A DNA stretch of 64,000 nucleotides from Candidatus Omnitrophota bacterium (GCA_043823745.1 JBDRAN010000002.1:6296-70295), one strand, 5' to 3'. Positions 22,922 to 48,500 are shown, counted from the first letter of the stretch. Notes: generated by a model not told the origin, from the letters alone. Numbers and translations are program-made.

Positions 22922-25900
22922 ATGGCTCACAGCGAGTTTGTCCACCTCCATGTCCACACCCAATACAGCCTCTTAGACGGCGCCTGTATCCTCGAGAGAC
23001 TCATCGAGAAGGCGGCAAAGTTTAAGCTTCCGGCTTTGGCGATTACCGACCACGGCAATATTTACGGCGCGATAAAATTTTATAAGCTCTGCATGGATAA
23101 AGGGGTAAAACCCATTATCGGGTGTGAAGCCTATATTGCACCAGGCTCGCGCCTTAAAAAAGAATATAAGCCCAACGAGAAGACGAATCATCACCTTATC
23201 CTGCTCGCCAAGGACGAAGAGGGGTACCACAATTTAGTGCGCCTGGTTTCGCTCGGCCATCTTGACGGTTTCTACTATCGTCCGCGTATCGATAAAGAAA
23301 TACTCACCCAGTATAGTAAGGGGCTCATCGGCTTAAGCGCGTGCTTAAAGGGCGAGGTGGCCTCAGCTATTGTCGCCGGAAGGATTAATGACGCCTATAA
23401 AATAGCTGATGAATATTTGAATATTTTCGGCCGCGGGAATTTCTATCTTGAGGTGATGGACAACGGCCTGCCCGAGCAGCATCGGGTTAACCAGTGTTTA
23501 GTTGCGATGTCTAAGGACCTGGGTATACCGATCGTATGCACCAATGATGTGCATTATCTTGAGCAAGATGAATCGTTCGCGCAGGAGGTGCTCCTGGGAA
23601 TTCAGACACAGACGACGCTCGATGACCCTAATCGTTTTAAGTTCAACAGTAACACGTTTTATTTTAGAAGCCCCGAAGAGATGCAGACGATCTTCAAAGA
23701 CATTCCGGGCGCAAGCCGTAATACGCTTGAAGTAACCCAGAAATGTAATGTAGTCATGGATTTTACAAAACTGCACCTACCGCATTTTGCCATACCCGGA
23801 GGCGAGAGCGAGGAGAGTTTCTTGCGCCGGCTTGTGTTTGAGAATGTTGCCAAGCGTTATCCGGCCGTGGGTGCTGAGGTTACGCAACGGCTTGAATATG
23901 AGCTTGGGGTGATTTCGAAAACGGGTTTTTCGAGTTACTTCATCATTGTGTGGGATCTGATTAAATTTGCCAAGGAAAATAATATTCCGGTTGGGCCAGG
24001 CCGAGGCAGCGCGGCCGGAAGTATCGTGAGTTATATTCTGGGAATTACCGATATCGACCCGCTTCGTTACGATTTACTTTTTGAGCGATTCTTGAATCCC
24101 GAACGTATCAGCATGCCTGATATCGATATCGATTTCTGTTACGAACGCCGGTCGCGCGTTCTTGAGTACGTCGGCAAGAAGTATGGTAAGGATAATGTAG
24201 CGCAAATTATTACGTTTGGAACGATGCTTGCCCGCGCGGTGGTGCGGGATACCGGTCGTGTGATGGGCTTTAGCTACACCGATGTCGATAAGATCGCAAA
24301 GATGATACCGCAGGTTCCCGGCCACCAGATCACCTTAAAAGAGGCGGTTGCTACCAATCCCGATCTTGAAGCAATTTATAATAGCGACGATAACATAAAG
24401 CGTCTTATCGATGTCGCGTCAAAACTTGAGGGCCTTTCCCGTCATGCGTCAACGCATGCGGCAGGCGTGGTTATATCAGATACGCCGCTTATTGAGCGTA
24501 TCCCCCTTATACGCGGTTCGGAAGGGGAAGTGGTGACCGGTTTCGATATGGAGTCTCTTGAGAAGACAGGCCTTCTGAAAATGGACTTTTTAGGACTTAA
24601 AACGTTAACGGTTATCGATGAAACGGTAAAGATTGTGAAACGTACCCATGGCACCATGATCGATATCCATGCGTTACCGTTCGATGATAAGAAAACGTTC
24701 CAGCTTCTCGGCGCCGGTGACACGATTGGGGTGTTCCAGCTTGAAAGCAGGGGGATGCGGGATATTTTAAACAAATTGATACCGACCCAATTTGAGGATT
24801 TGATCGCGGTGCTCGCCCTGTATCGGCCGGGACCATTAGGCAGCGGCATGGTCGATGATTTTATTGACCGCAAGAACGGAAAAAAAGGGGTTACGTATAC
24901 CCATCCACGACTTGAACCGATACTTAAAGAAACCTACGGTATTATTCTGTATCAGGAACAGACGATGCAGATTGTTTCACATCTTGCGGGTTTCAGTCTA
25001 TCCCGCGCCGATCTCCTGCGTAAAGCTATCGGTAAGAAAATTCCCGAGATAATGGAAGAGCAGCGCAACCTGTTTGTGCACGGCTGCGCTAAGAATGCTA
25101 TTTCAGCAAAGATCGCGAATCAGATCTTTGATTTAATTGATTATTTCTCGGGGTATGGATTTAATAAATGCGTTACGGGCGACACTAAAGTAATCGATGC
25201 ACAGAGTGGAGGGTTTATCACGCTGCAGGAGCTTTATGAAAATAGATCGATTGATTTTACTTTTGGGTTCAATAAAGATTTTAAAATCGAGAAACTACGT
25301 ATCATGGATGTGGTAGCAAATGGAGTAAAGTCTGTATATGCAGTAGCGACTTCGTTAGGTAAGGAAATAGAAGCTACCGCAAATCACCCTTTCCTGACCA
25401 TACATGGCTGGAAAAAATTAGAGGATCTTAAAAGTGGAGAACGAATTGCTTTGCCTCGCGTGTTCCCTTCCGTAGGCAAGGAGTCTATAGAGCCTTATAA
25501 ACTTATTGCGTTAGCGGGAATTATCTCTGAAGGCAATACGTGTCATCCTTCAGGAGTATATTTTTATGCTGCAAATCAACGTTTCTTTAATGATTTCGTA
25601 AAAAGCGTAAAATGTTTCCCGCATACGTTGCCCACTATTATAAGGCGTAGAAATATTTTCGAGGCATATTGCGGTACAGGCAGAGACGCTCGTTTTCTTA
25701 AAGGCAATATTCCCTGGAATAAGAGATGTGGTGTTAGTTGCGCAGAAGAAGTAATGATCCGTTCGGGTTTCCGGGTGTGGCTGGAAGAATTGGATCTGAT
25801 AGGGAAAAAAGCTGATGAAAAATTTATACCCGGTTTTATATTTCGACTCGATAATGAGTCATTGAAGTTATTTGTGGGGCGCCTATGGTCTGGAGATGGT

Positions 25901-27682
25901 TTTATTTTTAGCAAACAGAATACGTTGCCTTTTTATGCTTCGTCTTCACATAAGATAGCGCTTTCATTACATGACCTTTTGCTGCGCTTTGGAATCATAA
26001 GTAAGATTTATCAAAAGAAATTTAAATATCATTATAAAGGGGAAATGGATATTAAAAAAGGCTATGTGCTTATGGTGCATGGCGGAGTGAACATTGACAA
26101 TTTTATAGCGCACATTTGTCCGTATATTGTTGGTAGAGAGAAGGCGATAGTGCATCTGAAAGAATACTACAGAAAGGTTTCAAAGAATAAAGAAAGTAAA
26201 GACACTATTCCTCAAGAGATAAAATTTACAGTGCAGAGGCTTAAGGAAGAAAAAGGAATTTCCTGGAGACGTTTGCAGGGGGAATGCGGCCTCTCGATGA
26301 GAGAGTTTGTGGGAGGTGTCCACAAATATAAAAAAGGATTCAGAAGAAGCACTATTAAGAAGTTAGGAATATTTTTTGGTTCTGATGAACTTCTTTCTGC
26401 CGCGTCTTCTGAGGTGTATTGGGATGCTATCACTTCGATAAAATATGCCGGCCCTAAGCCCACGTATGATTTACAGATAGAGAAATATCATAATTTCATT
26501 GCTAATGGCATAGTGGTGCATAATTCACATTCAACCGCGTACGCGCTTATCTCCTATCAGACCGCGTATCTAAAAGCAAATTTTGGTGCTGAGTTTATGG
26601 CAGCGCTTTTAACCAGCGAACGAAATAATACGGATAAGATCCGTGAATATGTGAATGAAGCAGGCCGTATGGGTATCAAGGTGCTTCCGCCGGATATCAA
26701 TACCAGTTTTGCTAACTTTACCGTTACTGATGACGGTAATATCCGGTTTGGATTGCTCGCGATTAAAAATGTCGGTGGGGCTGCACTTACGAGTATTATT
26801 GAGGTGCGTAAAGCCGCAAAATTTGGCGGTATTTTTGATTTTTGCGAGCGCGTGGATTCACGTACGGTAAACAAAAAAGTAATCGAAAGTCTCATTAAAT
26901 CAGGAGCAATGGATACGTTTGGTCTTCGCCGCGCGCAGATGGCGGCTATTCTTGATGGGGTCTTAAGCCGCGGGGCCGGGAAAAAGGATGCTTCTCAGCT
27001 TATGTTATTCTCTGCGCCAAAAAAAGAAGTAGTTCCCGACGTGGCGGAGTGGCCGCTTGCCCAAATTCTTAATTTTGAAAAAACCCTTCTGGGTATGTAT
27101 ATCACCAGCCACCCTTTACATGCGTACGGGACGCTTGTTAAACATATCGCGCGTGAAGAAATTGCTGCTCTCTATGAAGGTGAACGGGCCGGCGAGGTGA
27201 TTGTGTGCGGGGTGCTTGAGAAGGTTAAGGTCATTACGACCCGCAAGGGTAATGACCGGATGGCGATCGTAAAGATTGAGGATGATACTGCGGGTCTTGA
27301 CGTATTTGTATTTCCCCGTCTTTTTGAAGAGTGCAATTCTTTTTTAAAAGAAAAAGCCGTCGTGCTGCTCGTGGGCAAGCTTGAGTCCAAGGAGAAAGTT
27401 CCCAAGATTCTTGCTTCCAAGGTTATCCTTATGGAAAACATCGCTGCAAGCATAAAACAGGTTAACATTACCATCGAGAAGAACAAATTCCCGCTCGATA
27501 AGCTGCGCGGTATTTTCGTAAAAAGCAGAGGTACGATCCCCGTTGTCTTTACCCTCAAAAACTCAAAGATGGAAGGCATTAAGATCAAAACAGCCAATAA
27601 TTTTTTCCTTAACCCCAGCGATGATGTGCTCAAGGAGCTCGATGCGCTCATCGGGCAGGAAAACCTATCACTTACGCTTTAA
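22922..27682 (+). CDS. dnaE: DNA polymerase III alpha subunit interrupted by an in-frame intein
   Basis: PHP domain (HLHVHTQYSLLDG) and polymerase core. The conserved GYGFNK/SHSTAYAL motif is split by a 452-aa insertion. The extein alone is about 1134 aa. Confidence 0.9.
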   Translation: MAHSEFVHLHVHTQYSLLDGACILERLIEKAAKFKLPALAITDHGNIYGAIKFYKLCMDKGVKPIIGCEAYIAPGSRLKKEYKPNEKTNHHLILLAKDEEGYHNLVRLVSLGHLDGFYYRPRIDKEILTQYSKGLIGLSACLKGEVASAIVAGRINDAYKIADEYLNIFGRGNFYLEVMDNGLPEQHRVNQCLVAMSKDLGIPIVCTNDVHYLEQDESFAQEVLLGIQTQTTLDDPNRFKFNSNTFYFRSPEEMQTIFKDIPGASRNTLEVTQKCNVVMDFTKLHLPHFAIPGGESEESFLRRLVFENVAKRYPAVGAEVTQRLEYELGVISKTGFSSYFIIVWDLIKFAKENNIPVGPGRGSAAGSIVSYILGITDIDPLRYDLLFERFLNPERISMPDIDIDFCYERRSRVLEYVGKKYGKDNVAQIITFGTMLARAVVRDTGRVMGFSYTDVDKIAKMIPQVPGHQITLKEAVATNPDLEAIYNSDDNIKRLIDVASKLEGLSRHASTHAAGVVISDTPLIERIPLIRGSEGEVVTGFDMESLEKTGLLKMDFLGLKTLTVIDETVKIVKRTHGTMIDIHALPFDDKKTFQLLGAGDTIGVFQLESRGMRDILNKLIPTQFEDLIAVLALYRPGPLGSGMVDDFIDRKNGKKGVTYTHPRLEPILKETYGIILYQEQTMQIVSHLAGFSLSRADLLRKAIGKKIPEIMEEQRNLFVHGCAKNAISAKIANQIFDLIDYFSGYGFNKCVTGDTKVIDAQSGGFITLQELYENRSIDFTFGFNKDFKIEKLRIMDVVANGVKSVYAVATSLGKEIEATANHPFLTIHGWKKLEDLKSGERIALPRVFPSVGKESIEPYKLIALAGIISEGNTCHPSGVYFYAANQRFFNDFVKSVKCFPHTLPTIIRRRNIFEAYCGTGRDARFLKGNIPWNKRCGVSCAEEVMIRSGFRVWLEELDLIGKKADEKFIPGFIFRLDNESLKLFVGRLWSGDGFIFSKQNTLPFYASSSHKIALSLHDLLLRFGIISKIYQKKFKYHYKGEMDIKKGYVLMVHGGVNIDNFIAHICPYIVGREKAIVHLKEYYRKVSKNKESKDTIPQEIKFTVQRLKEEKGISWRRLQGECGLSMREFVGGVHKYKKGFRRSTIKKLGIFFGSDELLSAASSEVYWDAITSIKYAGPKPTYDLQIEKYHNFIANGIVVHNSHSTAYALISYQTAYLKANFGAEFMAALLTSERNNTDKIREYVNEAGRMGIKVLPPDINTSFANFTVTDDGNIRFGLLAIKNVGGAALTSIIEVRKAAKFGGIFDFCERVDSRTVNKKVIESLIKSGAMDTFGLRRAQMAAILDGVLSRGAGKKDASQLMLFSAPKKEVVPDVAEWPLAQILNFEKTLLGMYITSHPLHAYGTLVKHIAREEIAALYEGERAGEVIVCGVLEKVKVITTRKGNDRMAIVKIEDDTAGLDVFVFPRLFEECNSFLKEKAVVLLVGKLESKEKVPKILASKVILMENIAASIKQVNITIEKNKFPLDKLRGIFVKSRGTIPVVFTLKNSKMEGIKIKTANNFFLNPSDDVLKELDALIGQENLSLTL
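25169..26524 (+). mobile_element. Intein with a LAGLIDADG homing-endonuclease domain inserted in DnaE (Cys1 ... His-Asn, followed by Ser+1)
   Basis: Block A CVTGDTKV directly after GFNK. A TxxH block B (ATANHPF). LAGLIDADG-like motifs LAGIISEGN and LWSGDGFIF. Terminal VVHN followed by SHS, which restores the DnaE motif. 1356 nt, in frame. Confidence 0.85.
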
Positions 27683-27816
27683 CCTAAAAAAAGGTATTCG
27701 GACTGGCCGGGCATGAATGTGCAGCCGTTACCCTGCAAAACCGACCAGGAATTTTGCAGAAAACACGATTTTGTGCTCCGTCGCACGTAGCGGCGCTTTT
27801 TTGCAGGTATGATTTT

Positions 27817-27910
27817 GGAAAAAAGCGAAAAACTCATAATTTCATGATATAATTCATAAATGGGTTTATCCGGCCTCATAAACGCAATAATCAAAACATT
27901 CATCATAAAA
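27817..27910 (+). repeat. Direct repeat copy A (about 94 bp): duplicate of the AAR-like gene's promoter plus first 17 codons
   Basis: About 93% identical to 30903-30997. Encodes MGLSGLINAIIKTFIIK then diverges to a stop after 29 aa. Confidence 0.85.
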
Positions 27911-28075
27911 CATTTAAGTCTGAAAAACCTCTCGTTAACATTAGCCGCTTAACGCATTTGCCTTTTTGTTCTAGCCCGACAAAATAGCATTCTTTTGGCT
28001 GATTTTTCTGATATAATTACGTAGGTATAATCCACTGCGGGGCATAATGCCTCTAAGCCACGGCATAAGCAAAAT

Positions 28076-29164
28076 ATGGAAAGAAAAAAAACTATTCTTT
28101 TGACCGGCGCTACTGGTCTTTTGGGTTCGTATTTATTGAAACTTTTTCTCGAAGAAGGCCATAAAGTTTATGCCCTCGCAAGAAGCAAAGATCATATTAA
28201 TGCAACCAGCAGGGTTATAAATTCCTTACGATTGTGGGATGAAACTATCTCTCCATCAAGCTATGCAGGAAAATTGATCGTAGTAGATGGTGATATTACA
28301 TCTTCTGACTTCAAAATTGAAACAAAAGAGATCATTGCACTTTTTCGATCGGAAGTTGAAATGATTTTTCATTGCGCAGCCTTAACGCTTTTTCGAGCCC
28401 CCCTAGAGATAATGCGAAAAATAAATGTAGAAGGTACTAAGAATATTTTAGATTTTTCTTTGACTTGCCTGCGGCTAAAAAATATAAATTATATAAGTAC
28501 AGCTTTTGTCGCGGGCAACAAAAATGGAATCGATTTTGACGAAAATATGTTGGAGTTGGGCCAGGGTTTTTATAATACCTACGAACAAACAAAATATGAA
28601 GTAGAAATATTGCTTAAAGATTACCAAAAAAAAGGCCTGATAATTTCTATTTTTCGTCCCAGCGTAGTAATGGGTGATTCTAAAGAGGGAAAGACTAATA
28701 ATTTCCATCTTTTTTATGAACCAACTCGTTTTTTTTCCCAAGGATTCTTTCCCGCGTTTCCTATGAATTTAGATTGTTCGTTGAACCTTATAAATATAGA
28801 TATCGCCGCTAAAGCAATTTTTATTCTAAGCGATATGGAAAAATCTGACGTTTATCATATCGTTTCCCCGGAAGATACTAATATGCATTTTTTTGCTAAA
28901 CTCGCCTCTTCTTATTTCAATTTCGAAATGCCGGAATTTATTCCTGAAGAGAAATTTGACTTCAGTGCCTGGACTGATGGGCAAAAATTATTAGGCGGAC
29001 CTTTCGTTCCTTATTGTAATTATAAGACGAAATTTGTATCACATAAAACACAACAAATTATGAGCCAATATAATTTTATATATCCTCAAATCAACGAGAG
29101 TAATCTTACTAAAATATTTGAATACTGCGATAAAGTTGGTTTTATAAAAAGGAAAAGACTATAA
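28076..29164 (+). CDS. Fatty acyl-CoA/thioester reductase-like SDR (NAD_binding_4 / male-sterility-type reductase domain)
   Basis: ILLTGATGLLGSYLL...YALAR...VVDGDIT...IFHCAA...NVEGT pattern typical of thioester-reductase domains. 362 aa. AT-rich island. Confidence 0.65.
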   Translation: MERKKTILLTGATGLLGSYLLKLFLEEGHKVYALARSKDHINATSRVINSLRLWDETISPSSYAGKLIVVDGDITSSDFKIETKEIIALFRSEVEMIFHCAALTLFRAPLEIMRKINVEGTKNILDFSLTCLRLKNINYISTAFVAGNKNGIDFDENMLELGQGFYNTYEQTKYEVEILLKDYQKKGLIISIFRPSVVMGDSKEGKTNNFHLFYEPTRFFSQGFFPAFPMNLDCSLNLINIDIAAKAIFILSDMEKSDVYHIVSPEDTNMHFFAKLASSYFNFEMPEFIPEEKFDFSAWTDGQKLLGGPFVPYCNYKTKFVSHKTQQIMSQYNFIYPQINESNLTKIFEYCDKVGFIKRKRL

Positions 29165-29171
29165 ATCAAAC

Positions 29172-30803
29172 ATGAATATCTTTTTTATACTTAGCCTGCT
29201 TATTGCAATCACTAGTTTAGGATTATCTTTTTTTCTGCTGTCTAAAACATGGCAAAAACCGGTCAATAGAGTTTTTGGCCTTTTTGCTATCAGTATAGGA
29301 GTTTGGGGTTTAGGCGGGAGTGTCATATCTATTATCCCTAAAGCTAATTATCAATTAGCTCAGTTTTGGTGGCAAATTGCTTACACCGGTATAATTCTTA
29401 TACCTGTACTTTATGCACGGTTTATTTTTGAATTCCTCGATCTGAAGAGGAAATTTTTTATTCGTACCATGTATCTAATAGGATTAATTTTCTTATTGCT
29501 AAATTGGTTCGATGGATCAAGATTTTTCTTAGGTGATTTAAAATTTATGTTTGGTCAATTCTATTGGCATGACTGGATTGAATCAAAAAGTATAAGTTAT
29601 ATTATTTTTTATCTAAGTTTTTATTGGTGTCTTCTGAGTTATCCTTTCTTGCTTTTATTATTAAATTTCAAAAAAACAACGGGATTGCGACGCGAACAAA
29701 CGAAATATATTATTTTCGGATCTATATTTGGCTGGTTGGGGGGCGAATCAAATTTTCTGCCCGATTTTGGTATCAACATTTACCCCTTTCTCAACTTACT
29801 TACGCCTTTTTACACATTGATTGTTGCCTACGCCATCCTCAAGCATCGCCTCATGGACATAGACATCGTTATTAAGAGAACAACCGTTTACTCAATTCTG
29901 GTCTCCTTAATTACTATTCTCTATTTTACAATTATTTACATCACAGAATTACTCTTTCGACGGTTTGTTGGCTATAAATCAATACCCATGGCATTGGGTT
30001 TTATTTCTCTTTTTACTTTGATATTCCAACCTCTGAAGAATTTTATCCAGTCCTTTATAGACAAATATTTCTTCAAAGGCTCGCAAGCTACCCTAGCAGA
30101 AGAACTCCAAAAAGCGCAGGAAGAGCTAAAAAGGGCTGAACGTCTAAAGGCAGTAGGCACTCTTGCTGCCGGTATGGCGCACGAGATAAAAAATCCGTTA
30201 ACAGGGATTATGACATTTACGGAGTATCTGCCTACCAAGTATACGGACCCTGCTTTTATAGAAAAATTCCATAAAATAGTTTCTACGGAAGTAAATAAGA
30301 TAAACTCAATTGTCGAACAGCTCTTAGATTTCTCTAAACCAAAACCACTGAAATTACAAGAAGCTAATATACACAATATCATAGATCAGACACTTTCTCT
30401 GCTTAATAATGACATCATTAAGTACAAAATCAATGTGAGCAGAAATTACGACAACACCTTTCCTATGCTGCATATAGACCCTAACCAAATACAACAGGTA
30501 TTTTGTAATTTTTTCCTTAATGCCATTGACGCTTTAAAAGAAGGGGGTGAATTGACCATTGCTACCCAACAGCTACCAGATAATGCTGAAATCACTATCA
30601 GCGACACCGGCCAAGGTATCCCTAAGAAAGATTTAGAACATATCTTTGACCCATTTTATACTACAAAAGAGACAGGGACAGGCTTGGGGATGTCGATTAT
30701 TTACGGAATAATTAAAGAACATAAAGGCATTATTGGTGTAGAAAGTGAGGTAAATAAAGGAACGACGTTTACGATAAAATTACCTTATTGTATCAATTTT
30801 TGA
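29172..30803 (+). CDS. Polytopic membrane sensor histidine kinase (HK1)
   Basis: N-terminal about 300 aa with at least 6 TM helices ending in YAILKHRLMDIDIV. HisKA H-box AAGMAHEIKNPL. HATPase_c (GTGLGMSII). Confidence 0.85.
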   Translation: MNIFFILSLLIAITSLGLSFFLLSKTWQKPVNRVFGLFAISIGVWGLGGSVISIIPKANYQLAQFWWQIAYTGIILIPVLYARFIFEFLDLKRKFFIRTMYLIGLIFLLLNWFDGSRFFLGDLKFMFGQFYWHDWIESKSISYIIFYLSFYWCLLSYPFLLLLLNFKKTTGLRREQTKYIIFGSIFGWLGGESNFLPDFGINIYPFLNLLTPFYTLIVAYAILKHRLMDIDIVIKRTTVYSILVSLITILYFTIIYITELLFRRFVGYKSIPMALGFISLFTLIFQPLKNFIQSFIDKYFFKGSQATLAEELQKAQEELKRAERLKAVGTLAAGMAHEIKNPLTGIMTFTEYLPTKYTDPAFIEKFHKIVSTEVNKINSIVEQLLDFSKPKPLKLQEANIHNIIDQTLSLLNNDIIKYKINVSRNYDNTFPMLHIDPNQIQQVFCNFFLNAIDALKEGGELTIATQQLPDNAEITISDTGQGIPKKDLEHIFDPFYTTKETGTGLGMSIIYGIIKEHKGIIGVESEVNKGTTFTIKLPYCINF

Positions 30804-30851
30804 TACAAGAGGTTAATTCTATTCCATACGTATACGTACAATCAATAAATG

Positions 30852-30886
30852 GCGATTCTACTAGAATCGCTCTTTGACTTTTTTGA
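30852..30886 (+). terminator. Possible intrinsic terminator after HK1
   Basis: GCGATTCTA-c-TAGAATCGC inverted repeat followed by TCTTTGACTTTTTT. Confidence 0.4.
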
Positions 30887-30902
30887 CACAGTGACGCAGA
30901 CG

Positions 30903-30997
30903 GGAAAAAAGCGAAAAACTCATAATTTCATGATATAATCAACAAAATGGGTTTATCCGGCCTCATAAACGCAATAATCAAAACATTCATCATAAAA
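30903..30997 (+). repeat. Direct repeat copy B (about 95 bp): native promoter and 5' end of the AAR-like gene
   Basis: GGGAAAAAAGCGAAAAACTCATAATTTCATGATATAAT...ATGGGTTTATCCGGCCTCATAAACGCAATAATCAAAACATTCATCATAAAA matches 27817-27910. Confidence 0.85.
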
Positions 30998-32095
30998 TTA
31001 TTGCCTCGGTTTATCCTTCGGAAATTAGGCTACAATCGAGGAATCGCTTTTATTGCTAATCTTCCTAATACGGCTTCCGTGCCTCTTTCCGTACCTTTCA
31101 GAAAGCTGGTAATCGCAATAATGCGGCAACTTTCGCCGGTTGTTGTTTCTCCCCTAGGTGGTTTTAAGAATAAAGATGGGGCGGAGGTCAAGGGGTGGGT
31201 AATCCTTTGTCTGCTCACTGCCGCCGAAATTCTAACGCATGCAGATTTCGCAAGAAAACGAGTCGTGCAGGCCGCTTGCTTGGCAGAACGCATGGGCGTG
31301 GATATTATAACATTAGGCGCTTTTACCTCGATTGTAACGCATGACGGTTTGGACTTAATAGGTAAAACAAAAGTTGGGATTACAACCGGCAATCCATACT
31401 CCGCAATCGTGGCAATTCAAAATATGCGAGAGGCTGCTCGGTTGGTAAATTTAGACATTATCAATGCAACGGTCGCAATCGTCGGTGCTGCTGGGTCTGT
31501 TGGATCAGGTTGTGCTCAGTTTCTGTTAGGAAAGGTAAAAAAGTTTTTGCTTATAGATTGGCAATATAATGCTTTGCGCGAGTTATATGATACGATTAAT
31601 CCAAAATCTACTAGTGTTGAAATGTTAAAAGATGTTCAGGGTATTGCTGCGGCTGATATTGTTATTCTTGTCACAAGTTCTGTCACCGGAATTATCGGAA
31701 AAGACTTATTAAAACCAGGCGCAATAGTAATAGACGGCGCAAATCCCCCCAATATTTCTAATGAAACGCTAAAATCAAGAAGTGATATTCTTGTGATTTC
31801 TTCCGCAATCGTAAAGGTGCCCGGTTTGCGTCATCCTTTTAATTTTAATCTGGGCTCAGGGGAAACATTCGGCTGTGTCGGTGAAGCTTTTGCTCTTGCC
31901 TGGACAAAGCATAAAGGTAATTATGCATTAGGTAAGGTTAGCGTACAACAGATGCAAGATATTGAAAGTATCGCCAGCGACGCAGGCTTTACCATCGCTC
32001 CGTTTCGTAATTCTCTTGGCTTAATTTCCAAAGAACAGATTGCTCATGTCCGTAACATAATACATTCTAATTATTTGAATACTGCGATAAAATAG
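30947..32095 (+). CDS. Acyl-ACP reductase (AAR)-family protein, homolog of the cyanobacterial alkane-pathway reductase
   Basis: Blocks ITLGAFTSIV, ITTGNPYSAIVAI, ATVAIVGAAGSVGSGCAQFL, IVIDGANPPN and FGCVGEAFALAW match AAR recalled from memory (ISALGGFTSII, FTTGNTHTAYV, ATVAVVGATGDIGSAV, LIDGGYPKN, FACFAEAML). Apparently leaderless (TGaTATAAT 7 nt before the ATG). Confidence 0.65.
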   Translation: MGLSGLINAIIKTFIIKLLPRFILRKLGYNRGIAFIANLPNTASVPLSVPFRKLVIAIMRQLSPVVVSPLGGFKNKDGAEVKGWVILCLLTAAEILTHADFARKRVVQAACLAERMGVDIITLGAFTSIVTHDGLDLIGKTKVGITTGNPYSAIVAIQNMREAARLVNLDIINATVAIVGAAGSVGSGCAQFLLGKVKKFLLIDWQYNALRELYDTINPKSTSVEMLKDVQGIAAADIVILVTSSVTGIIGKDLLKPGAIVIDGANPPNISNETLKSRSDILVISSAIVKVPGLRHPFNFNLGSGETFGCVGEAFALAWTKHKGNYALGKVSVQQMQDIESIASDAGFTIAPFRNSLGLISKEQIAHVRNIIHSNYLNTAIK

Positions 32096-32117
32096 GCTTT
32101 ATAACCAAAAATAAAAC

Positions 32118-33194
32118 ATGCCTGCAAGAAAAAAACAATCAATAAACACAATAGTAGAAAAGATCGGTGAGAGTAAAAAACGAAAAATAATAATCGATTT
32201 TTTCTCTAAAGATATAGAAAATTTTGACCAGAGCATAAAGAATCTAGAGAAAAAAACACCCCTCAAGTCTTTCCCTAATAACAAAATTTGCTTATATGTT
32301 TTCCGACTTATGAATAAGTTATTAGATAAGGCACGAGTAATTGAAGAAATAATTAGCGATAAAACGCTTTTAAAAGCGATAAAGCAAGCGTTTAGAGAAC
32401 AAATAGAATATTTTCTTGGCAAGAGCACGTTAATGCGTTGGGGGTATTATAAACCCTCCGGGCATCCCGGCGACTATGAATTAATAGAAGCATTTTATGA
32501 TAATATGCCTCTTTCCAAAGGCATAGGTTTTTGTGGTGACAAATATATTCTTCAAGACGGCTATGTAGAAGCAGTTAAAATCAGAAAAGATTTGATGCTG
32601 CAAAAACTGGCTTCTTTTATAAAGGATAATACATCAAAACATCTAAATATTATGAATCTTGGGTGCGGATCAAGCAGGGAAATACGAGAGTTGTTTTCTA
32701 CTGCTCATGTCTTAATTCCTCGCGACAAAAGAATAACATTTACCTTAATTGATTGGGACGAAAAAGCTCTAGAGTTTTCAAAGCAATCGTTATTAAAATA
32801 TCGAAGTAACGATGCTATTGAATTCATATTTTTTAAGATAAACGTGCTCGATTTATATAAAAATTCTTCTCAATATACAAAAGCCCTGATGAAGCAGGAT
32901 TTGATTTATAGTATTGGTTTGGCAGATTATATGCCAAATTTAGTTTTTGGCGAAATAATAAAATTTTGTTTTAGTTTATTAAAAAAGAAAGGTACTCTAA
33001 CTATAGCGCACAAAAATATTAAAGTGCATAAAAGTGTTGCTTCCGATTGGGCATGCGATTGGCATTTTTATCCTCGCAGTATCGAGGATGTAATTAAAAT
33101 TATTGACGAAAGTTTTGAAGACCATAAACGTAAAGTAGAAACTGTCAGTGAAAAAACAAAGCATATTTTTTTCGTGGATATAAGTAAACCATGA
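32118..33194 (+). CDS. Class I SAM-dependent methyltransferase with an about 170-aa N-terminal extension
   Basis: Motif I LNIMNLGCGSSREI, acidic motif II (TLIDWDE), and a later motif (GTLTIAH). 358 aa. Confidence 0.6.
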   Translation: MPARKKQSINTIVEKIGESKKRKIIIDFFSKDIENFDQSIKNLEKKTPLKSFPNNKICLYVFRLMNKLLDKARVIEEIISDKTLLKAIKQAFREQIEYFLGKSTLMRWGYYKPSGHPGDYELIEAFYDNMPLSKGIGFCGDKYILQDGYVEAVKIRKDLMLQKLASFIKDNTSKHLNIMNLGCGSSREIRELFSTAHVLIPRDKRITFTLIDWDEKALEFSKQSLLKYRSNDAIEFIFFKINVLDLYKNSSQYTKALMKQDLIYSIGLADYMPNLVFGEIIKFCFSLLKKKGTLTIAHKNIKVHKSVASDWACDWHFYPRSIEDVIKIIDESFEDHKRKVETVSEKTKHIFFVDISKP

Positions 33195-35260
33195 AGTCAA
33201 ATTTTTATTTTGTGTCACATTTAGCCGCAGCATTACTTGTTCTGTTTTTTTCATTCTTTGTTTTTATAAAAAATAAAAAATCAAAAGTTAATCTTAGTTT
33301 TTCAATATTTGGATCAACAATTTTTAGCTGGCTTTTATTTTCTTCTTTTGCAGCTATTTCCGCCGAAAAAGAGATGAATCTTTTTTGGTTCAAAATGAGT
33401 TATATGGGTATTATTCTTATACCGCATACTTTCTTGTATTTTGTATCGTGCGTAACAGAAAAAAAGAATACTTTTATTATATTTTTCAGTTGGCTCTATG
33501 CCTTTAGTTTCATTCTATTGTTATGGTTTACTAATTTATTTATAGTCGGTATTTATGAATATCCTTGGGGGGTTTATCCTCGTGCTTTTCCAATCTCACA
33601 CCTTCTATTTTTATCATCATTTATTATTTTGTTTGTATGCGCAATCCGTGCTTTAATCTCGAGAGTGATTGAAAAAGCTAATGTTACTACAGAAAAATTA
33701 AGAGCCACTTATATACTTATGGGAACTTTATTCGGAGTTTGCGGAAGTGTAGATTTTTTAGCTAACTATGGGATAAACTTTTATCCTTCTGGCTTCATTT
33801 TTATGATACTTTATCCTTCGATTCTAAGTTATGCCATCCTCAAATACCGCTTAATGGATATTCGCGTTGCTTTAACCCGCGCGGGAATTTTCATTGCTGT
33901 TTATACGTTTGTTTTAGGCATCCCGCTTTTAATTGGTTTCAAAACAGATAAATGGCTCTGGGCGATGCTTTTAATGGGCGTTCTTTCAAGCGTAGGGCCG
34001 TTTGTGTATAGCTATTTACGCCAACAGATTGAAAATGCGATCTTTAAGGAACAACAAAGATATCAGCAAGCCATCAAAGAATTAGCTAAACGGATGGTAC
34101 AGATAAGAGACATGGCCACTTTGTCTAAGACGATTATTTCCGATGTGTTCAAAGTCGCGCAACCGGAATTTATTGTCCTGTACATATTTTCCAAAGATAG
34201 TAAATCATACGTACTCCAGGACAACAGTATAAAAAATAATTCTACGTTTGAGACAGACATTTCAGCGGATTCAATACTCGTAGAGAATTTATCCCGTAAC
34301 AAACGGCCGGTGATTCTTGAGAGCGGTTTTTCCTTAGATTTACCGCTGGAAACGCTTATTGTGCCTTTCTTCGCGGAAAGCAGCCTCTATGGCATAATGT
34401 TTATCGGTCCTAAGCCGAAAAAGGCTGTTTATATAGAATCAGATTTCATTGCTTTTGATATTCTTTCTTCTCAGGCGTCCTTAGCCATCGAAAATTGTCT
34501 CTTCTGGCAGGAGGAAAAAACTCGAATAGCAAAAGAAGAGCAGATAAAACGAATGCAGGCCATGGATCATTTCTCTGCGGCCATGGCTCATGAAATAGAC
34601 AATCCCATCACTGCAATAGCCGGGCAATTGCGTTTGATAGAGCTTATCCTTAGCGAAAAATTTAAAGACTTGATTCCTGCCCAAGACTTAGCTGAATTAA
34701 CTACTTATGCCGGTACAACGGTAACTAATCTTGGAAGAATATCGAAAATGATAAAGGCAGTAAGGGAATTTTCCAGGCAAGATACGGGCGAATTTTCGCT
34801 TTTATCAGTGGAGGAGGCTGTCGATTTTACTTTAGCGATAGTTGGGCCGCAGGTCAAATACAAAAAAGTATCTTTCACCAAAGAAATAGAAGATAACCTT
34901 TCTGTACGCGGCAACAGGATTTATCTGGCGGAAGCTTTGATGAACTTAATCGTCAATAGTATGCATGCGGTTCAAGATAAACCGGAGTGGCAGGGAAAAA
35001 TAGATTTAAAAGTTAAAAAAGCCGGTAGAGAAAAATGTCTTATTGAAATACGCGATAATGGTTATGGTATAAAAAAACATCTTCTTGAAAATATTTTCTT
35101 AGATTTTGTCAGCACTAAGGCTTCTTCTGAAGGAACGGGGATGGGGTTAGCTAGAGTAAGAAAAATAATCCAAATGCACAGCGGCAAAGTATGGGCGCAA
35201 AGTGAAGGCGCCGGTAAAGGGGCAACTTTTTTTATCGAACTTCCCTTGGCAGAGAAATAG
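33191..35260 (+). CDS. Polytopic membrane sensor histidine kinase (HK2), paralog of HK1 with an extra cytoplasmic (GAF/PAS-like) region
   Basis: The N-terminal TM domain ends in YAILKYRLMDIRVAL, the same motif as HK1. H-box SAAMAHEIDNPI. HATPase_c GTGMGLARV. 689 aa. 4-nt overlap with the methyltransferase. Confidence 0.85.
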   Translation: MKSNFYFVSHLAAALLVLFFSFFVFIKNKKSKVNLSFSIFGSTIFSWLLFSSFAAISAEKEMNLFWFKMSYMGIILIPHTFLYFVSCVTEKKNTFIIFFSWLYAFSFILLLWFTNLFIVGIYEYPWGVYPRAFPISHLLFLSSFIILFVCAIRALISRVIEKANVTTEKLRATYILMGTLFGVCGSVDFLANYGINFYPSGFIFMILYPSILSYAILKYRLMDIRVALTRAGIFIAVYTFVLGIPLLIGFKTDKWLWAMLLMGVLSSVGPFVYSYLRQQIENAIFKEQQRYQQAIKELAKRMVQIRDMATLSKTIISDVFKVAQPEFIVLYIFSKDSKSYVLQDNSIKNNSTFETDISADSILVENLSRNKRPVILESGFSLDLPLETLIVPFFAESSLYGIMFIGPKPKKAVYIESDFIAFDILSSQASLAIENCLFWQEEKTRIAKEEQIKRMQAMDHFSAAMAHEIDNPITAIAGQLRLIELILSEKFKDLIPAQDLAELTTYAGTTVTNLGRISKMIKAVREFSRQDTGEFSLLSVEEAVDFTLAIVGPQVKYKKVSFTKEIEDNLSVRGNRIYLAEALMNLIVNSMHAVQDKPEWQGKIDLKVKKAGREKCLIEIRDNGYGIKKHLLENIFLDFVSTKASSEGTGMGLARVRKIIQMHSGKVWAQSEGAGKGATFFIELPLAEK

Positions 35261-35275
35261 AAAGGAGGATTAATT

Positions 35276-35662
35276 ATGGAGAAGCGCAAGGTTCTTATAG
35301 TGGAGGATGAACAGGACATTTGCCAGTTTATGAAAAGGATGCTTGAATTAAAAGGATGCGAAGTTTTTACCGCTCTCACCGCGCAAGAAGGCTGGGAAAT
35401 TTTTCAAAGAGAAAAGCCCCAAGCTTGCTCTATCGATATTCTTCTTTCCCATTCAGAATTTGACGGCACAGAACTTTTAAGAAGAATAAGGCAAATAGAT
35501 AAAAACGTTTTGTGCGTAATGGTAACGCGTATCGATGACAAAAAAACTATGAATGAAGTGGAAGAACTAGGGATTGACGGAATTTTCATAAAACCTCCCG
35601 CGGCAGGAGAGCTGGATAATTTAATCGACCAGCTCGCGCATGGCAAAAGAAAGGAGGCATAA
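35276..35662 (+). CDS. Stand-alone response-regulator receiver domain (CheY-like)
   Basis: VLIVEDEQD acidic pocket, candidate phospho-Asp in SIDILLS, conserved Thr (CVMVT) and Lys (FIKP). 128 aa with no output domain. Confidence 0.75.
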   Translation: MEKRKVLIVEDEQDICQFMKRMLELKGCEVFTALTAQEGWEIFQREKPQACSIDILLSHSEFDGTELLRRIRQIDKNVLCVMVTRIDDKKTMNEVEELGIDGIFIKPPAAGELDNLIDQLAHGKRKEA

Positions 35663-35664
35663 CG

Positions 35665-36000
35665 ATGGCAAATCCATTACCAAATGAAGCTGAACTTTAT
35701 GCAAGAATGGAAAAAGAGCATATCAACGTGCATCCGCTTGTATGGGAATTCATTAATCATCATGTGAGAAATGATCTTAACTGGATTACGATGTGCATAG
35801 GTTTGCATCGTTCAACGCCGCGCTGGATACTGCGGCTTGCTTCTTCTCTTATCAGCCTCTTATACAAAATCTCCCGTCAACCGGGAGAGCCGCCCCCTGA
35901 TCTTTTGAGCGCTTTTAACGGCACTATTGAGAGAGTAAAAAATATCGACAGATTTTTAAAAAATTTGCGAGAGAAAACCTGTCCTGCTTACGATCTTTAA
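35665..36000 (+). CDS. Hypothetical protein, translationally coupled to the receiver
   Basis: 111-aa ORF starting 3 nt after the receiver stop. No recognisable motif. Confidence 0.4.
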   Translation: MANPLPNEAELYARMEKEHINVHPLVWEFINHHVRNDLNWITMCIGLHRSTPRWILRLASSLISLLYKISRQPGEPPPDLLSAFNGTIERVKNIDRFLKNLREKTCPAYDL

Positions 36001-36103: not shown

Positions 36104-36376
36104 ATGCGAAAACGCGATATTGTATTAAAAATCAGCCAGGATACGGGTATAAAACAGGTTGTCGTTAAAGATGTAGTGCAACGCACGTTTGATACTATTT
36201 TTGAGACGCTTAAGAACGGGAATCGTATTGAGCTGCGAAATTTCGGTGTTTTCCTTGTTAAGAAAAGAAAGAAACGCATCGGTAGAAACCCTAAAACCGG
36301 CGCGGTCGTGCCCGTCCCTGAGAGACTCACCGTTGTATTCAAGCCTGGCCTGGGAATGAAGAAGGTCTTTAGATAA
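36104..36376 (+). CDS. HU/IHF-family DNA-binding protein
   Basis: 90 aa. Signature RNFGVF...R.GRNPKTG...V...F.PG beta-arm. Confidence 0.85.
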   Translation: MRKRDIVLKISQDTGIKQVVVKDVVQRTFDTIFETLKNGNRIELRNFGVFLVKKRKKRIGRNPKTGAVVPVPERLTVVFKPGLGMKKVFR

Positions 36377-36388
36377 CCCCACTGGTTC

Positions 36389-37675
36389 ATGAAAAAAACA
36401 TATAGTGGCGTACGGGGAACGACTGATTTTGCTCCACCAGCGGCAGCATTGTTTAGCGAAATATGCGTCCGCGCCCGAGCGATAGGTAACCTTTTCGGCT
36501 ACGAAGAGATTATATTGCCTGTTCTTGAAGAAGAGGGAGTTTTTAGCCGCGGCGTAGGGCAAACCAGCGACATCGTTGAAAAGCAGATGTTTAGGCTCGC
36601 GCGGCGTTCCGAAGAAGCATCAGGCGACATTGTGTTGCGGCCGGAAGGAACTGCGCAGGTAGTGCGATTCTATCTTGAGAACGCCCTCAACAAACAAAGC
36701 GACTTTTATAAGTTTTTTTATATCGGTCCGATGTTTCGCGGAGAGCGGCCGCAAAAAGGAAGGCTGCGTCAGTTTCATCATATCGGCGCCGAGGCTATCG
36801 GTTCAGACAGCGTGCATCTTGACGCGGAAATGATTATGCTGGCATTCGCCATACTTGAGGCGGCGGGAGTAAGAGACAAAGAACTCGTTGTCAATACCTT
36901 AGGGTGCGCTGCCGATAAAGAAAGATTTTCTCAGGCGCTTACGAACGATTTGCGTACGCATCAGGCTGCGTTATGTCCCGACTGCGGCCGGCGCCTTTCC
37001 AAAAACCCCTTGCGGGTTCTTGATTGTAAACAGGATCAATGCAAGCGCCTTGTCTCAACGTTGGGGCTTTCCGATAAGCATCTGTGTGAAGATTGTAAAC
37101 GGCAATTTAAGCTGTTGCGTGAACTTCTTGACGCATTGGCGATACCGTACCGGCATAATCCCCATTTAGTGCGCGGCCTTGATTACTATACGAATACGGT
37201 ATTTGAAATTACCTCAAAACGTTTGGGCGCGCAAGATGCGATCGGCGCCGGCGGCCGCTATAATAATTTAATCAGCCAATTGGGCGGCCCCGATGTTCCG
37301 GCGCTTGGCTTTGCGCTTGGTCTTGAGCGGGTGATATTGGCGCGCGAGGCGTCACAGGACGCCCGTGGTTTCGATGTTTTTGTTGTTTCGATCGGTGAAG
37401 CCGTGCGCGGCAAAGGGTTTAGCCTTTTGGGGGCAGTACGAGCCGCAGGTATTGCCGCGGATATGGATTATTGCGCGAAGTCGCTTAAAGCGCAAATGCG
37501 TTGCGCGACGCGCCGCGGCGCGCGTTTCGTGGTAATTATCGGCGAGGAAGAACAGAGGGAGAACGTTGTTGTGATAAAGAATATGGAGGCGTCAACGCAA
37601 GAGAAAGTTTCACAGGATGATTTTGTTGAATTCTTGCGTCAACGTATTACCGTTACACCCAGGAGCGTTCTATGA
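36389..37675 (+). CDS. hisS: Histidyl-tRNA synthetase
   Basis: Class II motifs ([14 protein letters not shown]) and an anticodon-binding domain. 428 aa. Confidence 0.85.
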
Positions 37676-39054
37676 TGCGAACGCACACATGTGGAGAATT
37701 GTCGGCCGGTGACATCGGCAAAGAGGTTATCATCTGCGGTTGGGTTGCGAGTCGTCGCGATCACGGAAAAATAATTTTTATTGATATCCGTGATCGTTAC
37801 GGTATCACGCAGGTTGTTTTTTTCCCGAAACCCGATCCGGTCGTGTACGAACAGGCAAAAAAGTTGGGCAGCGAATTTGTGATACGCGTGCGCGGTACGG
37901 TCAACACGCGGCCCAAGGGAACCGAGAACCCGAAGCTTAGCACCGGTTTTATCGAAGTGGGAGCGGCTGAGTTAACCATACTTAATACGAGCGCGGAACT
38001 TGCGTTTGTTATTGATGACGAGATCGAAGCGGGTGAGGAGACGCGTCTGGTGCATCGCTATCTTGACCTGCGCAGAAAAAAGATGCTTGATAAAATGGTA
38101 TTGCGTCATCAGTTTAATCAGGCTTTACGCGCCTGCCTCGATAAACAGAAATTTCTTGAAATCGAGACCCCGTTTCTTACGAAGTCAACTCCCGAGGGCT
38201 CACGCGATTATTTAGTCCCCTCAAGGCTTAACCCGAATAAATTCTACGCTCTTCCGCAATCCCCGCAGCTTTTTAAACAGATATTGATGGTCGGAGGAAT
38301 CGATCGTTATTACCAGCTGGTACGTTGTTTTCGCGATGAAGACTTACGCCGGGACCGCCAGCCCGAATTTACACAGCTCGATATCGAGATGTCCTTTGTT
38401 GATGAGAATGATGTGATGAGCCTTGCCGAGGGCCTTATCGCGGCCGCCTTTGGCCAGGTGCTGGGCATCGAAATTAAAACACCATTTATTCGCATTCCTT
38501 ACAAAGAGGCGATGGAAAAATACGGGTCTGATAAACCTGACGTCGGCCAGGGGGAGTATCGATTCTCGTGGGTCGTTGACTTTCCACTTTTTGAATACAA
38601 TGACGACGAGAAACGCTGGCAGGCGTGTCATCATCCGTTTACCGCGCCTCAATCCGATGACGTCGGGCTTCTCGATGGTGATGTTTCAGTGGTTCGTGCG
38701 CGAGCGTATGATCTTGTTTTAAATGGTCAGGAAATTGCCGGCGGTTCGGTAAGAATACATTCTCAAGAGATGCAGGAAAAAATTTTTCAGATTCTGGGTA
38801 TCAGCGCAGAAGATGCGCAGAAGAAATTCGGGTTCCTGCTGCGCGCGTTTACCTACGGTGCGCCGCCGCATGCGGGTATTGCATTTGGCCTTGATCGTCT
38901 GTACGCGATTATTACCGGATCTGAAAGCATCCGTGACGTGATCGCGTTCCCGAAGACCCAAAAAGGAGTTTGCCCTCTCACGGAAGCGCCATCGGCAGTG
39001 GATGACGCGCAATTACGAGAGCTTTATTTGAAGTTGGTGGAAGAGAAGAAATAA
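37672..39054 (+). CDS. aspS: Aspartyl-tRNA synthetase, bacterial-type core but lacking the GAD insertion domain
   Basis: [49 protein letters not shown] is the bacterial-type motif 2 region. Motif 3 GGSVRIH. Only 460 aa. Confidence 0.8.
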
Positions 39055-47625: not shown

Positions 47626-47924
47626 AGAAGCTAGGAAGCTCGTGGCTTACAGGGAAGATGGCAGATTGCAGATGACAGATGGCAGATAGAGGGACGAGGG
47701 ATGAGAGACGCAGATTGCCGCGAAATCAACGCAGATTTACGCAGATAAAAAAGAGATTTTGTATCCTCGTTACTTACAATCTTTGCTTTAATTTTAAAAC
47801 TTGACCTATTTTTGTGGAGGGATAGTATAATCATTAATGAGTGATTATATGAGGCTAAAATTTAGGTAAATTTATAGGGTAACTCTTAAAGGGATTGCCT
47901 TTTTTGACCAAGGATACGAGAAAA

Positions 47925-48500
47925 ATGGACGAAGGAAAATTATTTGTAAATCTTCACAATATTCTTAAAGGATATAAAAACAAATGTAGATTTTTAACCG
48001 AGCTAAAAACTTCATTATTTACTAAAAAAACATCTTATCAGCTTGATTTTGATATTATAATCATTCAGTTGCAAAACAGGGTAGAAGACATTTTTGACCG
48101 TATTCTAAGAACTTATACAAGACCTAAGCAAAAAGAGGAATATTTATATAACGATGAGATAATGAAAGATACTGCAGCAAAATTTACCCCCGAGGAGGTT
48201 AGGAACTTGATTATTTTTAATCTTGGTTTTAGTGAGAAAAAGAATTTGATTTTCAAGCTTTTTAAGGTATCTAAATCGACGAAAACGATAATTGATAAAC
48301 TTAATGAAATGAGAAATGCAATTGCCCATAGATATAGCGAAGACGATAAAAGATTTATTTATAAAGAAAAGAACGTTTTACATGATCCAAACACACTTAT
48401 TAATTTTTTTAGAGACAATTTCGAGGGTATTATTGAGATTCTTGAAATCGAAACTAAGCTACTAGATGCCATAGATAAAGCCGAAGGTGAACTTGGTTGA
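47925..48500 (+). CDS. Hypothetical protein with an HEPN-type Rx4H motif (possible RNase, toxin or Abi)
   Basis: C-terminal MRNAIAHRY fits the HEPN R-x(4-6)-H motif. Predicted all-alpha. AT-rich island. The TTG start at 47895 is also possible. Confidence 0.4.
   Translation: MDEGKLFVNLHNILKGYKNKCRFLTELKTSLFTKKTSYQLDFDIIIIQLQNRVEDIFDRILRTYTRPKQKEEYLYNDEIMKDTAAKFTPEEVRNLIIFNLGFSEKKNLIFKLFKVSKSTKTIIDKLNEMRNAIAHRYSEDDKRFIYKEKNVLHDPNTLINFFRDNFEGIIEILEIETKLLDAIDKAEGELG

Follow-up and report, generated by a model that had tools for sequence, protein, structure and literature searches.

An AT-rich island of an Omnitrophota genome with two units of a candidate module pairing fatty-acyl-tailoring enzymes and HisKA_7TM sensors

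Introduction

Why would genes for fatty-acyl-tailoring enzymes lie directly beside genes for polytopic histidine kinases (HKs)? This question is raised by an AT-rich island in the metagenome-assembled genome of an uncultured Candidatus Omnitrophota bacterium (GCA_043823745.1), which was analysed within a stretch of 64,000 nucleotides (JBDRAN010000002.1:6296-70295; hereafter the window, with positions counted from its first nucleotide). Between dnaE (22922-27682) and the genes for HU and hisS (36104-36376 and 36389-37675), seven open reading frames (ORFs) follow each other on the plus strand. They encode a stand-alone thioester reductase of the short-chain dehydrogenase/reductase type (SDR), a first sensor kinase (HK1), an AAR-like acyl-thioester reductase, a class I methyltransferase (MT), a second sensor kinase (HK2), a receiver-only response regulator (RR) and a protein of 111 residues (U111). 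A first-pass annotation of this DNA had listed the same genes in the same order, and all ORFs lie exactly at the positions it gave; its domain assignments for the reductases, the methyltransferase and the kinases were confirmed by hidden Markov model (HMM) searches against Pfam and NCBIfam.

The same annotation had proposed that the island serves the synthesis and sensing of a lipid-derived signal. Here, comparative genomics lent support to this proposal, in which signalling itself is read from gene context. We consider it somewhat better than an even chance that the island consists of two units of a widespread module, in which a fatty-acyl-tailoring enzyme is encoded directly 5' of its cognate HisKA_7TM sensor and its lipid product is sensed in the membrane and relayed.

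Enzyme genes and HisKA_7TM sensors in other genomes

Is the arrangement peculiar to this island? AAR-like homologs were located with each species represented by a single genome, and profiles built from the window proteins served to score the genes around them (loci are denoted by L numbers). The AAR-like gene is stand-alone or fused to PilZ in 56 loci, and in 53 of them a HisKA_7TM protein is encoded by the gene that comes next on that strand; the gap between the two mostly ranges from -4 to +10 nt (usually an overlap or no more than 10 nt). The three exceptions are explained by contig ends or a gap of 1.3 kb, and a HisKA_7TM neighbour was absent from all 14 long PigE-like fusions. Carriers of the AAR-7TM pair belong to Omnitrophota, Nitrospira/Nitrospirota (including N. 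moscoviensis), Saccharibacteria and other Patescibacteria, Chlamydiota, Planctomycetota and Elusimicrobiota. The protein encoded 3' of the AAR-like gene does not have to be a kinase: in L010 (11130-13160) it is a 7TM-GAF protein fused to an HD-GYP phosphodiesterase, and in L011 (1196-2425) it consists of the 7TM domain only. Thus, it is the sensor domain, rather than a kinase in itself, that accompanies the AAR-like enzyme.

Similar pairs were observed for the other two enzymes. Genes of the MT family were always followed by a 7TM kinase gene (L077/78, L079, L080, L081/82 and L087), sometimes with a gene for acyl carrier protein (ACP) at the 5' side or with a PilZ domain fused to the methyltransferase. 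Genes of the SDR family were found directly 5' of 7TM kinases in L088 and L089 and 5' of the MT-HK pair in L087, and SDR homologs are also present in the operons of L036 and L090; a metagenome scan with SDR returned two irrelevant loci only. In addition, the gene for an amine-oxidase/CrtI-like enzyme lies 5' of a HisKA_7TM kinase gene in L090 (GCA_043814605.1, 7001-15083); this cassette occurs there twice in tandem, with an IS200-type Y1 transposase gene between the two and with an SDR homolog, a nitroreductase-like gene and ketosynthase (KS) genes at their 5' side. This enzyme is a fourth partner type. As for co-localisation of the window's gene set in other genomes, the unit of enzyme and 7TM sensor (with RR and the small protein) recurs, and the exact composition of seven genes was seen in the window only.

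Many of the neighbouring genes are related to lipids. A FadL/TodX channel is encoded near the AAR-like gene in 20 loci and a PlsC-type acyltransferase in 15, besides dedicated ACP, KS, KR and FabA-like genes and a START-AAR fusion paralog. The Nitrospira AAR-like proteins (L013-L035, L037 and L060) carry an N-terminal PilZ domain and have about 580 residues in total, and in this genus the gene for the FadL/TodX outer-membrane channel lies divergently 5' of the AAR-7TM kinase pair. The locus of N. moscoviensis (NZ_CP011801.1, 1292873-1313991) belongs to a named strain with a complete genome, and this species is cultivable. Links to cyclic di-GMP (c-di-GMP) also recur, namely the PilZ fusions, the HD-GYP output of L010 and GGDEF neighbours in L079, where two GGDEF-domain genes (5668-7871) are located directly 5' of an operon with the order MT, 7TM kinase, RR, U109 and RR.

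Full-text literature on HisKA_7TM, on acyl-ACP reductase together with histidine kinase, 7TM or Nitrospira, and on COG5322 did not describe the pairing. The statement of the first-pass annotation that no system of such composition had been described therefore holds for the literature searched.

Two further features of these neighbourhoods were noticed. AbiEi/AbiEii toxin-antitoxin pairs adjoin related operons or sit within them (L001, 14906-16601; L036, 18203-19457). In L036, the AAR-like and 7TM kinase genes are separated by a gene (11055-12089) for a protein of 344 residues that shows a weak match to PAPS-reductase/QueC-like ATP pyrophosphatases.

Co-variation of enzyme and 7TM type

If enzyme and sensor are matched to each other, the type of the 7TM domain would be expected to follow the type of the enzyme. 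For this comparison, we used kinases whose cytoplasmic parts are closely orthologous to that of HK2. The SDR-linked kinase of L088 and the MT-linked kinase of L087 are 89% identical in the cytoplasmic core but 31% in the 7TM domain, and the corresponding values for the MT-linked kinase of L079 and the AAR-linked kinase of L001 are 90% and 30%. The reverse was observed for L001 and L004, both of which are AAR-linked: their 7TM domains are 52% identical and their cytoplasmic parts merely 28%. Identity of the 7TM domains is 54-61% within the SDR-linked set (window HK1, L088 and L089), 39-56% within the MT-linked set (window HK2, L087, L079 and L080) and 45-52% in AAR-linked pairs. The 7TM domain of HK1 is 54-55% identical to those of the SDR-linked kinases of L088 and L089, versus 28-33% to MT-linked ones.

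Since the cores are so similar while the 7TM domains differ and group by enzyme, the enzyme gene and the 7TM segment appear to have been exchanged together. A comparison of L079 and L001 at the DNA level revealed an abrupt jump from background to 80-90% identity within the kinase gene, at the boundary between the 7TM and cytoplasmic parts, and identity remains high across the RR and small-protein genes. These patterns suggest that enzyme and 7TM segment move jointly as a cassette onto a conserved signalling core, and such joint exchange is what a cognate pair of product and receptor (or of enzyme and receptor) would predict. In the window, SDR is accompanied by a sensor of the SDR-linked type (HK1) and MT by one of the MT-linked type (HK2).

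The two thioester reductases

Which reactions could these enzymes catalyse? The first-pass annotation regarded both reductases as acyl-thioester reductases, and the HMM searches bore this out, placing both in thioester-reductase families and neither among nucleotide-sugar epimerases or shikimate dehydrogenases. SDR (28076..29164, plus strand; 362 residues) is a stand-alone thioester reductase of the R-domain or NAD_binding_4 type. It matched NAD_binding_4 (PF07993) with an E-value of 2e-51 (175 bits versus a cut-off of 20.1) and the thioester-reductase subfamily TIGR01746 with 7e-40 (137 bits, under the cut-off of 213), and the motifs TGATGLLG (TGxxGxxG) and YEQTK (YxxxK) were read in its translation. 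Its nearest solved relatives in PDB are thioester reductases that act on carrier proteins: the reductase domain of MxaA, R domains of non-ribosomal peptide and polyketide synthases, carboxylic acid reductase (CAR) and fatty acyl-CoA reductase (FAR). Unlike them, the window SDR is a stand-alone protein of 362 residues, not part of a megasynthase, and is encoded directly 5' of a sensor kinase.

The AAR-like protein (30947..32095, plus strand; 382 residues) is of the AAR/PigE-N type (COG5322), as assigned by NCBIfam and by alignment to AAR and PigE. It matched the long-chain acyl-ACP reductase model TIGR04058 with an E-value of 4e-27 (95.4 bits versus an equivalog cut-off of 449.7) and the PigE N-terminal model with 4e-39, also far under the equivalog cut-off; by these scores it is a homolog, and no equivalog, of cyanobacterial AAR. 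The segment FGC310VGEA aligns with FAC294FAEA of AAR 6jzq (C294 of the S. elongatus AAR), and Cys310 is also in register with the catalytic Cys of PigE (4ppm). Both C310 and the glycines G180/G183/G186 of the GxGxxG motif are invariant among 14 AAR-like homologs. The NAD(P)H motif reads VGAAGSVGSG, and an amphipathic N-terminal extension is present. The NCBI annotation of this protein (P0001) is shorter, with 267 residues, and the additional 115 N-terminal residues are conserved among homologs. Neither the window AAR-like protein nor P0007 gave a match when looked up by exact sequence.

The chemistry of AAR involves an acyl-Cys intermediate and hydride from NADPH, and AAR-type enzymes release carrier-bound acyl chains reductively as aldehydes (PMC10829540, PMC6498172). 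The window protein belongs to the same fold family (COG5322) as cyanobacterial AAR, PigE and the AAR-type domain of KecF, and their catalytic Cys and NAD(P)H motif are conserved in it. It differs from them in context: the alkane pathway of cyanobacteria pairs AAR with an aldehyde-deformylating oxygenase, a domain that is missing from the island ORFs, and no aminotransferase partner is present. Moreover, the clade of the window protein is distinguished from AAR and PigE by the extra amphipathic N-terminus and by an almost constant 7TM sensor partner.

The methyltransferase and the comparison with Phc

MT (32118..33194, plus strand; 358 residues) is a class I S-adenosylmethionine (SAM)-dependent methyltransferase that resembles the PhcB family. 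Its class I domain (Methyltransf_31) occupies the C-terminal half and follows a helical N-terminal cap, the SAM motifs are conserved in the family, and its stop codon overlaps the start of HK2. The structure model had a pLDDT of 91.6, and a fold search of PDB with it returned generic small-molecule methyltransferases only (3ocj, SgvM, CFA synthase and others); the family profile gave nothing significant against PDB sequences.

An indirect link to a known signalling enzyme came from two other sources. JGI assigns KEGG-derived phcB names to two members of the MT family (P0145 and P0150), and the window MT matched a plasmid-encoded Paraburkholderia methyltransferase of 468 residues with an E-value of 3e-12 over residues 43-332 (about 290 residues), including a shared KPxG(H/Y)xGDY motif. 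The Paraburkholderia operon has the order MT (468 residues), HK (445 residues), RR and RR, which resembles phcBSRQ in sizes and order (PMC11960443, PMC6989110). A tblastn search of the methyltransferases against plasmids returned no record labelled PhcB, and the comparison with Phc was made through the Paraburkholderia operon and the JGI names rather than with sequences of Ralstonia PhcB (RSc2735) and PhcS. The MT family would be placed as a distant relative of PhcB-like enzymes. The first-pass annotation had called the analogy with Phc formal; given the phcB names and this match, it is stronger than claimed.

The phcBSRQ genes of Ralstonia share with the MT-HK2-RR segment of the window both the order of methyltransferase, membrane kinase and receiver without a DNA-binding domain and the logic that this order implies (PMC11960443, PMC6989110). 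In Ralstonia, the methyl esters of 3-OH fatty acids produced by PhcB are perceived by the membrane kinase PhcS, from which the signal reaches the receivers PhcR and PhcQ; this signal is derived from fatty acids, as is proposed for the window. Differences are also evident. The phcS-like kinase of L083 lacks HisKA_7TM; its N-terminal domain is shorter and matches MASE8 only weakly, with HisKA at residue 225. For PhcS itself, the position of His230 (PMC11960443) would likewise imply a shorter sensor, whereas the window kinases have HisKA_7TM (plus GAF in one of them). The phc-like Paraburkholderia methyltransferase carries an N-terminal extension of about 110 residues that is not present in the window MT. 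The target of Phc is the LysR regulator PhcA, and there is no LysR gene in the island, which in turn adds two thioester reductases and a DHp-like protein and belongs to another phylum. On balance, the analogy that the window module would work like Phc is well supported.

Sensor kinases, receiver and U111

How might a lipid product be perceived? HK1 (29172..30803, plus strand; 543 residues) is built of HisKA_7TM of the SDR-linked type, HisKA and HATPase_c, and HK2 (33191..35260, plus strand; 689 residues) of HisKA_7TM of the MT-linked type, GAF_3, HisKA and HATPase_c. The HisKA_7TM domain (PF16927) scored 55.1 bits in HK1 and 42.6 bits in HK2 against a gathering cut-off of 28.6, and the H-boxes are intact (AHEIKNP and AHEIDNP, respectively). 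The sensor domains had been described as entirely intramembrane, which is true of HK1 and not of HK2 with its cytoplasmic GAF domain. The two kinases are only about 27% identical, so that the earlier view of them as recent paralogs does not stand. A structure model of the 7TM domain from an alignment of two window sequences was poor (pLDDT 52). In the literature, HisKA_7TM is named merely as a sensor of unspecified specificity, with no ligand described. A rhodopsin-like mode, in which an aldehyde would form a Schiff base with a Lys of the 7TM domain, was considered and rejected: there is no conserved intramembrane Lys in 47 AAR-linked 7TM domains.

RR (35276..35662, plus strand; 128 residues) is a receiver-only response regulator with the acidic pocket E10/D11, the phospho-acceptor D54, T84 and K106 all present. 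It is not the orphan that had been assumed, as it shares 45-81% identity with the RR encoded after each HK2-type kinase. The next gene encodes U111 (35665..36000, plus strand), which gave no Pfam match apart from sub-threshold ones to helical domains of histidine kinases. Its family is rare, with 59 representatives among 1.84 billion proteins, and its members always come after the receiver wherever they were seen (L001, L003, L079, L089 and the window). All of 20 sequences have His32 and Asn36, within a motif HH(I/V)(R/G)ND(L). Against the DHp part of the linked kinases, profile-profile alignment by hhalign reached a probability of 92% (E-value 6.8e-7), with His32 on the phospho-acceptor His, and all controls (reversed, column-shuffled or other regions) remained at or below 1.5%. 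Thus, the protein initially listed as an unknown has a DHp-like domain, and we interpret it as a candidate minimal histidine phosphotransferase of the DHp type.

A second receiver is encoded 3' of the U111 homologs in L079 and L089. Taken together with the DHp-likeness of U111 and the intact D54/T84/K106 of a receiver-only RR, this suggests that the module includes a phosphorelay, whose terminal output is not encoded in the island. Phosphorelays of the Spo0F-Spo0B and ChpT types place a histidine phosphotransferase of DHp fold between receivers, and the island resembles them in that a receiver-only protein is followed by a small DHp-like protein whose His is in register. However, in comparison with Spo0B and ChpT, U111 has only about 110 residues, no CA-like domain, an insertion in the hairpin and no significant Pfam match.

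Proposed mechanism and alternative explanations

In the mechanism that we propose, the enzymes would turn acyl-ACP (or acyl-CoA) thioesters into neutral derivatives that partition into membranes: the reductases would be expected to give an aldehyde or alcohol, and MT a methyl ester or another methylated product. The product of the terminal, kinase-adjacent enzyme would be bound within the membrane by the matching 7TM domain, binding would set the activity of the kinase, and phosphate would pass from HK to the receiver, then to His32 of U111 and finally to a terminal regulator that is not encoded in the island. The product chemistry, ligand binding by the 7TM domain, the role between or within cells, the order of the phosphorelay and its output are all what we infer.

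Several observations weigh against this interpretation. It is drawn wholly from gene context, and the GAF domain of HK2 might be the true ligand-binding site. The island contains no exporter, no DNA-binding regulator and no target genes. The window AAR-like enzyme has no 7TM partner of the AAR-linked type, and the SDR of L087 has none of the SDR-linked type, so that a rule of one enzyme for one sensor requires the added assumption that the enzymes work one after another and that the ligand is determined by the last of them; a series pathway whose kinase-adjacent enzyme sets the sensed product does fit the window. In addition, the co-variation was observed in about 11 kinases, mostly from related Omnitrophota, and linkage together with a recombination hotspot at a conserved domain boundary could explain part of it.

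Could the 7TM kinases instead monitor a physical or compositional property of the membrane, with the enzymes remodelling lipids (fatty alcohols, ether-lipid or wax precursors) in a feedback loop? The sensors are indeed largely intramembrane, the PlsC-type acyltransferase, ACP/KS and START-fusion neighbours are typical for lipid synthesis, and the module is retained in the reduced genomes of Saccharibacteria. Such homeostasis is nevertheless unlikely, because a generic membrane sensor would hardly exchange its 7TM domain with the enzyme type while the core stays 90% identical; besides, output domains vary while the link between enzyme and 7TM is kept, and the MT family is related to a known family of autoinducer synthases. 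It is also conceivable that the enzyme itself is a co-sensor docked on the 7TM domain, which would report the acyl-ACP pool, NAD(P)H or, through PilZ, c-di-GMP and need no free lipid ligand. Enzyme and HK genes that overlap or are tightly coupled in translation, the PilZ domains fused to AAR-like and MT proteins and the amphipathic extension of the AAR-like protein are in line with this idea, and the co-variation is equally compatible with protein-protein matching. Yet the strict conservation of catalytic residues (C310, the NADPH and SAM motifs) argues for turnover, three or four unrelated enzyme folds would each need a docking surface, and a hydrophobic small molecule that crosses the outer membrane is suggested by the occurrence of FadL; we regard a co-sensor as distinctly improbable.

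In some relatives (L004-7, L036 and L090), full KS/KS/ACP/DH(/KR) sets accompany the reductases, and both AAR-type and R-domain reductases are known chain-release enzymes, which might point to an ordinary cluster for a specialised lipid or natural product with the two-component genes as its pathway-specific transcriptional regulators. This is very unlikely, considering that most loci, including those of the window and Nitrospira, lack biosynthetic genes beyond the single enzyme, that RR has no DNA-binding domain and the output may be HD-GYP (L010), and that the two genes stay together as a unit across phyla. Finally, the compositionally foreign nature of the island and its recombination scars would be compatible with unrelated genes having come together by chance in an AT-rich patch that was acquired horizontally. 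The adjacency counts refute this explanation and leave it hardly any probability: the same neighbours were found in 53 of 56 independent species-level genomes and, for MT and SDR, without exception in the contexts examined.

Structure and composition of the island

How was the island assembled? A segment of 94 nt upstream of SDR-HK1 (27817..27910, plus strand) is repeated at 30903..30997 on the same strand, at the 5' end of the AAR-like gene; 53 nt are 100% identical and the rest (a match of 51 nt) is 88% identical. The segment holds a promoter-like extended -10 element, TGATATAAT, at 27845-27853 in the first copy and 30931-30939 in the second, together with the first 17 codons of the AAR-like gene. 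The first copy overlaps a truncated ORF of 30 codons (AAR' remnant, 27860..27952, plus strand) that aligns with the 5' end of the AAR-like gene and, lying upstream of SDR, appears to be a recombination scar. A second probable scar is a stretch of 36 nt resembling the 3' end of SDR (32069..32104, plus strand), which is 89% identical to 29112-29147 and overlaps the stop codon of the AAR-like gene.

The promoter assignment draws on the duplicated TGATATAAT only, since a sigma-70 consensus scan gave 33 matches versus 27.9 +/- 4.9 in shuffles, with no enrichment. The island would be transcribed as two units under the same promoter type, SDR-HK1 and AAR-MT-HK2-RR-U111, separated by a terminator-like hairpin after HK1 (30851..30871, plus strand; found by a hairpin scan), and recent recombination has probably brought the two units together. 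Duplicated promoters and a recent modular expansion had been proposed at first pass, and in this respect the proposal was right; its recent-paralog part fails on the low identity of the kinases. The TGATATAAT element was also seen to end just 6-7 nt before the AAR ATG, with no Shine-Dalgarno sequence (30931-30947; 27845-27862), so the AAR mRNA may be leaderless.

GC content of the island is 0.31-0.44 versus about 0.47-0.51 in the flanks, and at third codon positions (GC3) it is 0.28-0.41 versus 0.46-0.54. The earlier description of an AT-rich block that differs from its flanks was thus correct by both measures, and the difference at synonymous sites indicates that the bias is not merely an effect of hydrophobic amino acids. 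At the left edge, a terminator-like hairpin with a T-run follows dnaE (27779..27801, plus strand; stem 27779-27795, tail CTTTTTTGCA). There is no tRNA near the borders, no integrase was seen at the island, and Rfam revealed no riboswitch or non-coding RNA in it.

Some further features of the surrounding DNA were recorded. The dnaE gene carries an intein (about 25217-26525; GC 0.386) with a LAGLIDADG homing endonuclease, its domains being Intein_splicing at residues 766-1201 and LAGLIDADG_3 at 983-1065. A second AT-rich patch (47895-50864; GC3 down to 0.27) contains four ORFs on the plus strand (201, 181, 162 and 249 residues) with no Pfam match. Genes for aminoacyl-tRNA synthetases are located just 3' of the module in the window (hisS and aspS-type, 36389-39054) and also in Saccharibacteria (trpS/tyrS-type and aspS-type; L043 and L047-L057), which is possibly a coincidence.

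Known signalling systems and implications

A synthase that uses acyl thioesters, encoded beside a polytopic kinase that senses the hydrophobic product in the membrane, is also the principle of CqsA/CqsS in Vibrio, LqsA/LqsS/LqsR in Legionella and the diffusible signal factor (DSF) system RpfF/RpfC. The window follows the same logic, but the synthases of these systems (a pyridoxal phosphate-dependent acyltransferase and a crotonase, respectively) are unrelated to the window enzymes and the sensor domains differ as well; Pfam and NCBIfam scans found no aminotransferase-fold (CqsA/LqsA-type) or crotonase protein in the island. The general logic is thus known from Phc, Cqs/Lqs and Rpf, and the pairing of these enzymes with HisKA_7TM is new, being absent from the literature searched.

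A more far-reaching interpretation would be that HisKA_7TM domains are intramembrane receptors for fatty-acyl-derived molecules, each with its own ligand-making enzyme as a mobile cassette of synthase and receptor that is recombined onto conserved signalling cores. We put this forward tentatively, as the chances are somewhat against it. If true, it would amount to a chemical language, for quorum sensing or autocrine use, that spans phyla from Omnitrophota and Nitrospira to Saccharibacteria and other Patescibacteria, Chlamydiota, Planctomycetota and Elusimicrobiota, with gating by c-di-GMP through PilZ fusions in some lineages, and it would give the HisKA_7TM domain its first class of ligands. 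A near-obligate partner enzyme offers a directly testable hypothesis about the ligand of this widespread domain. The module is found in lineages whose cell-cell or lipid signalling is scarcely known, such as Omnitrophota, the candidate phyla radiation (CPR) group Saccharibacteria and the nitrite oxidiser Nitrospira. U111, having the DHp part only, would be a minimal histidine phosphotransferase. The cassette swap, in which cores are 90% identical and sensors 30% identical and track the enzyme, represents a natural experiment in receptor specificity and could guide the engineering of orthogonal pairs of synthase and sensor.

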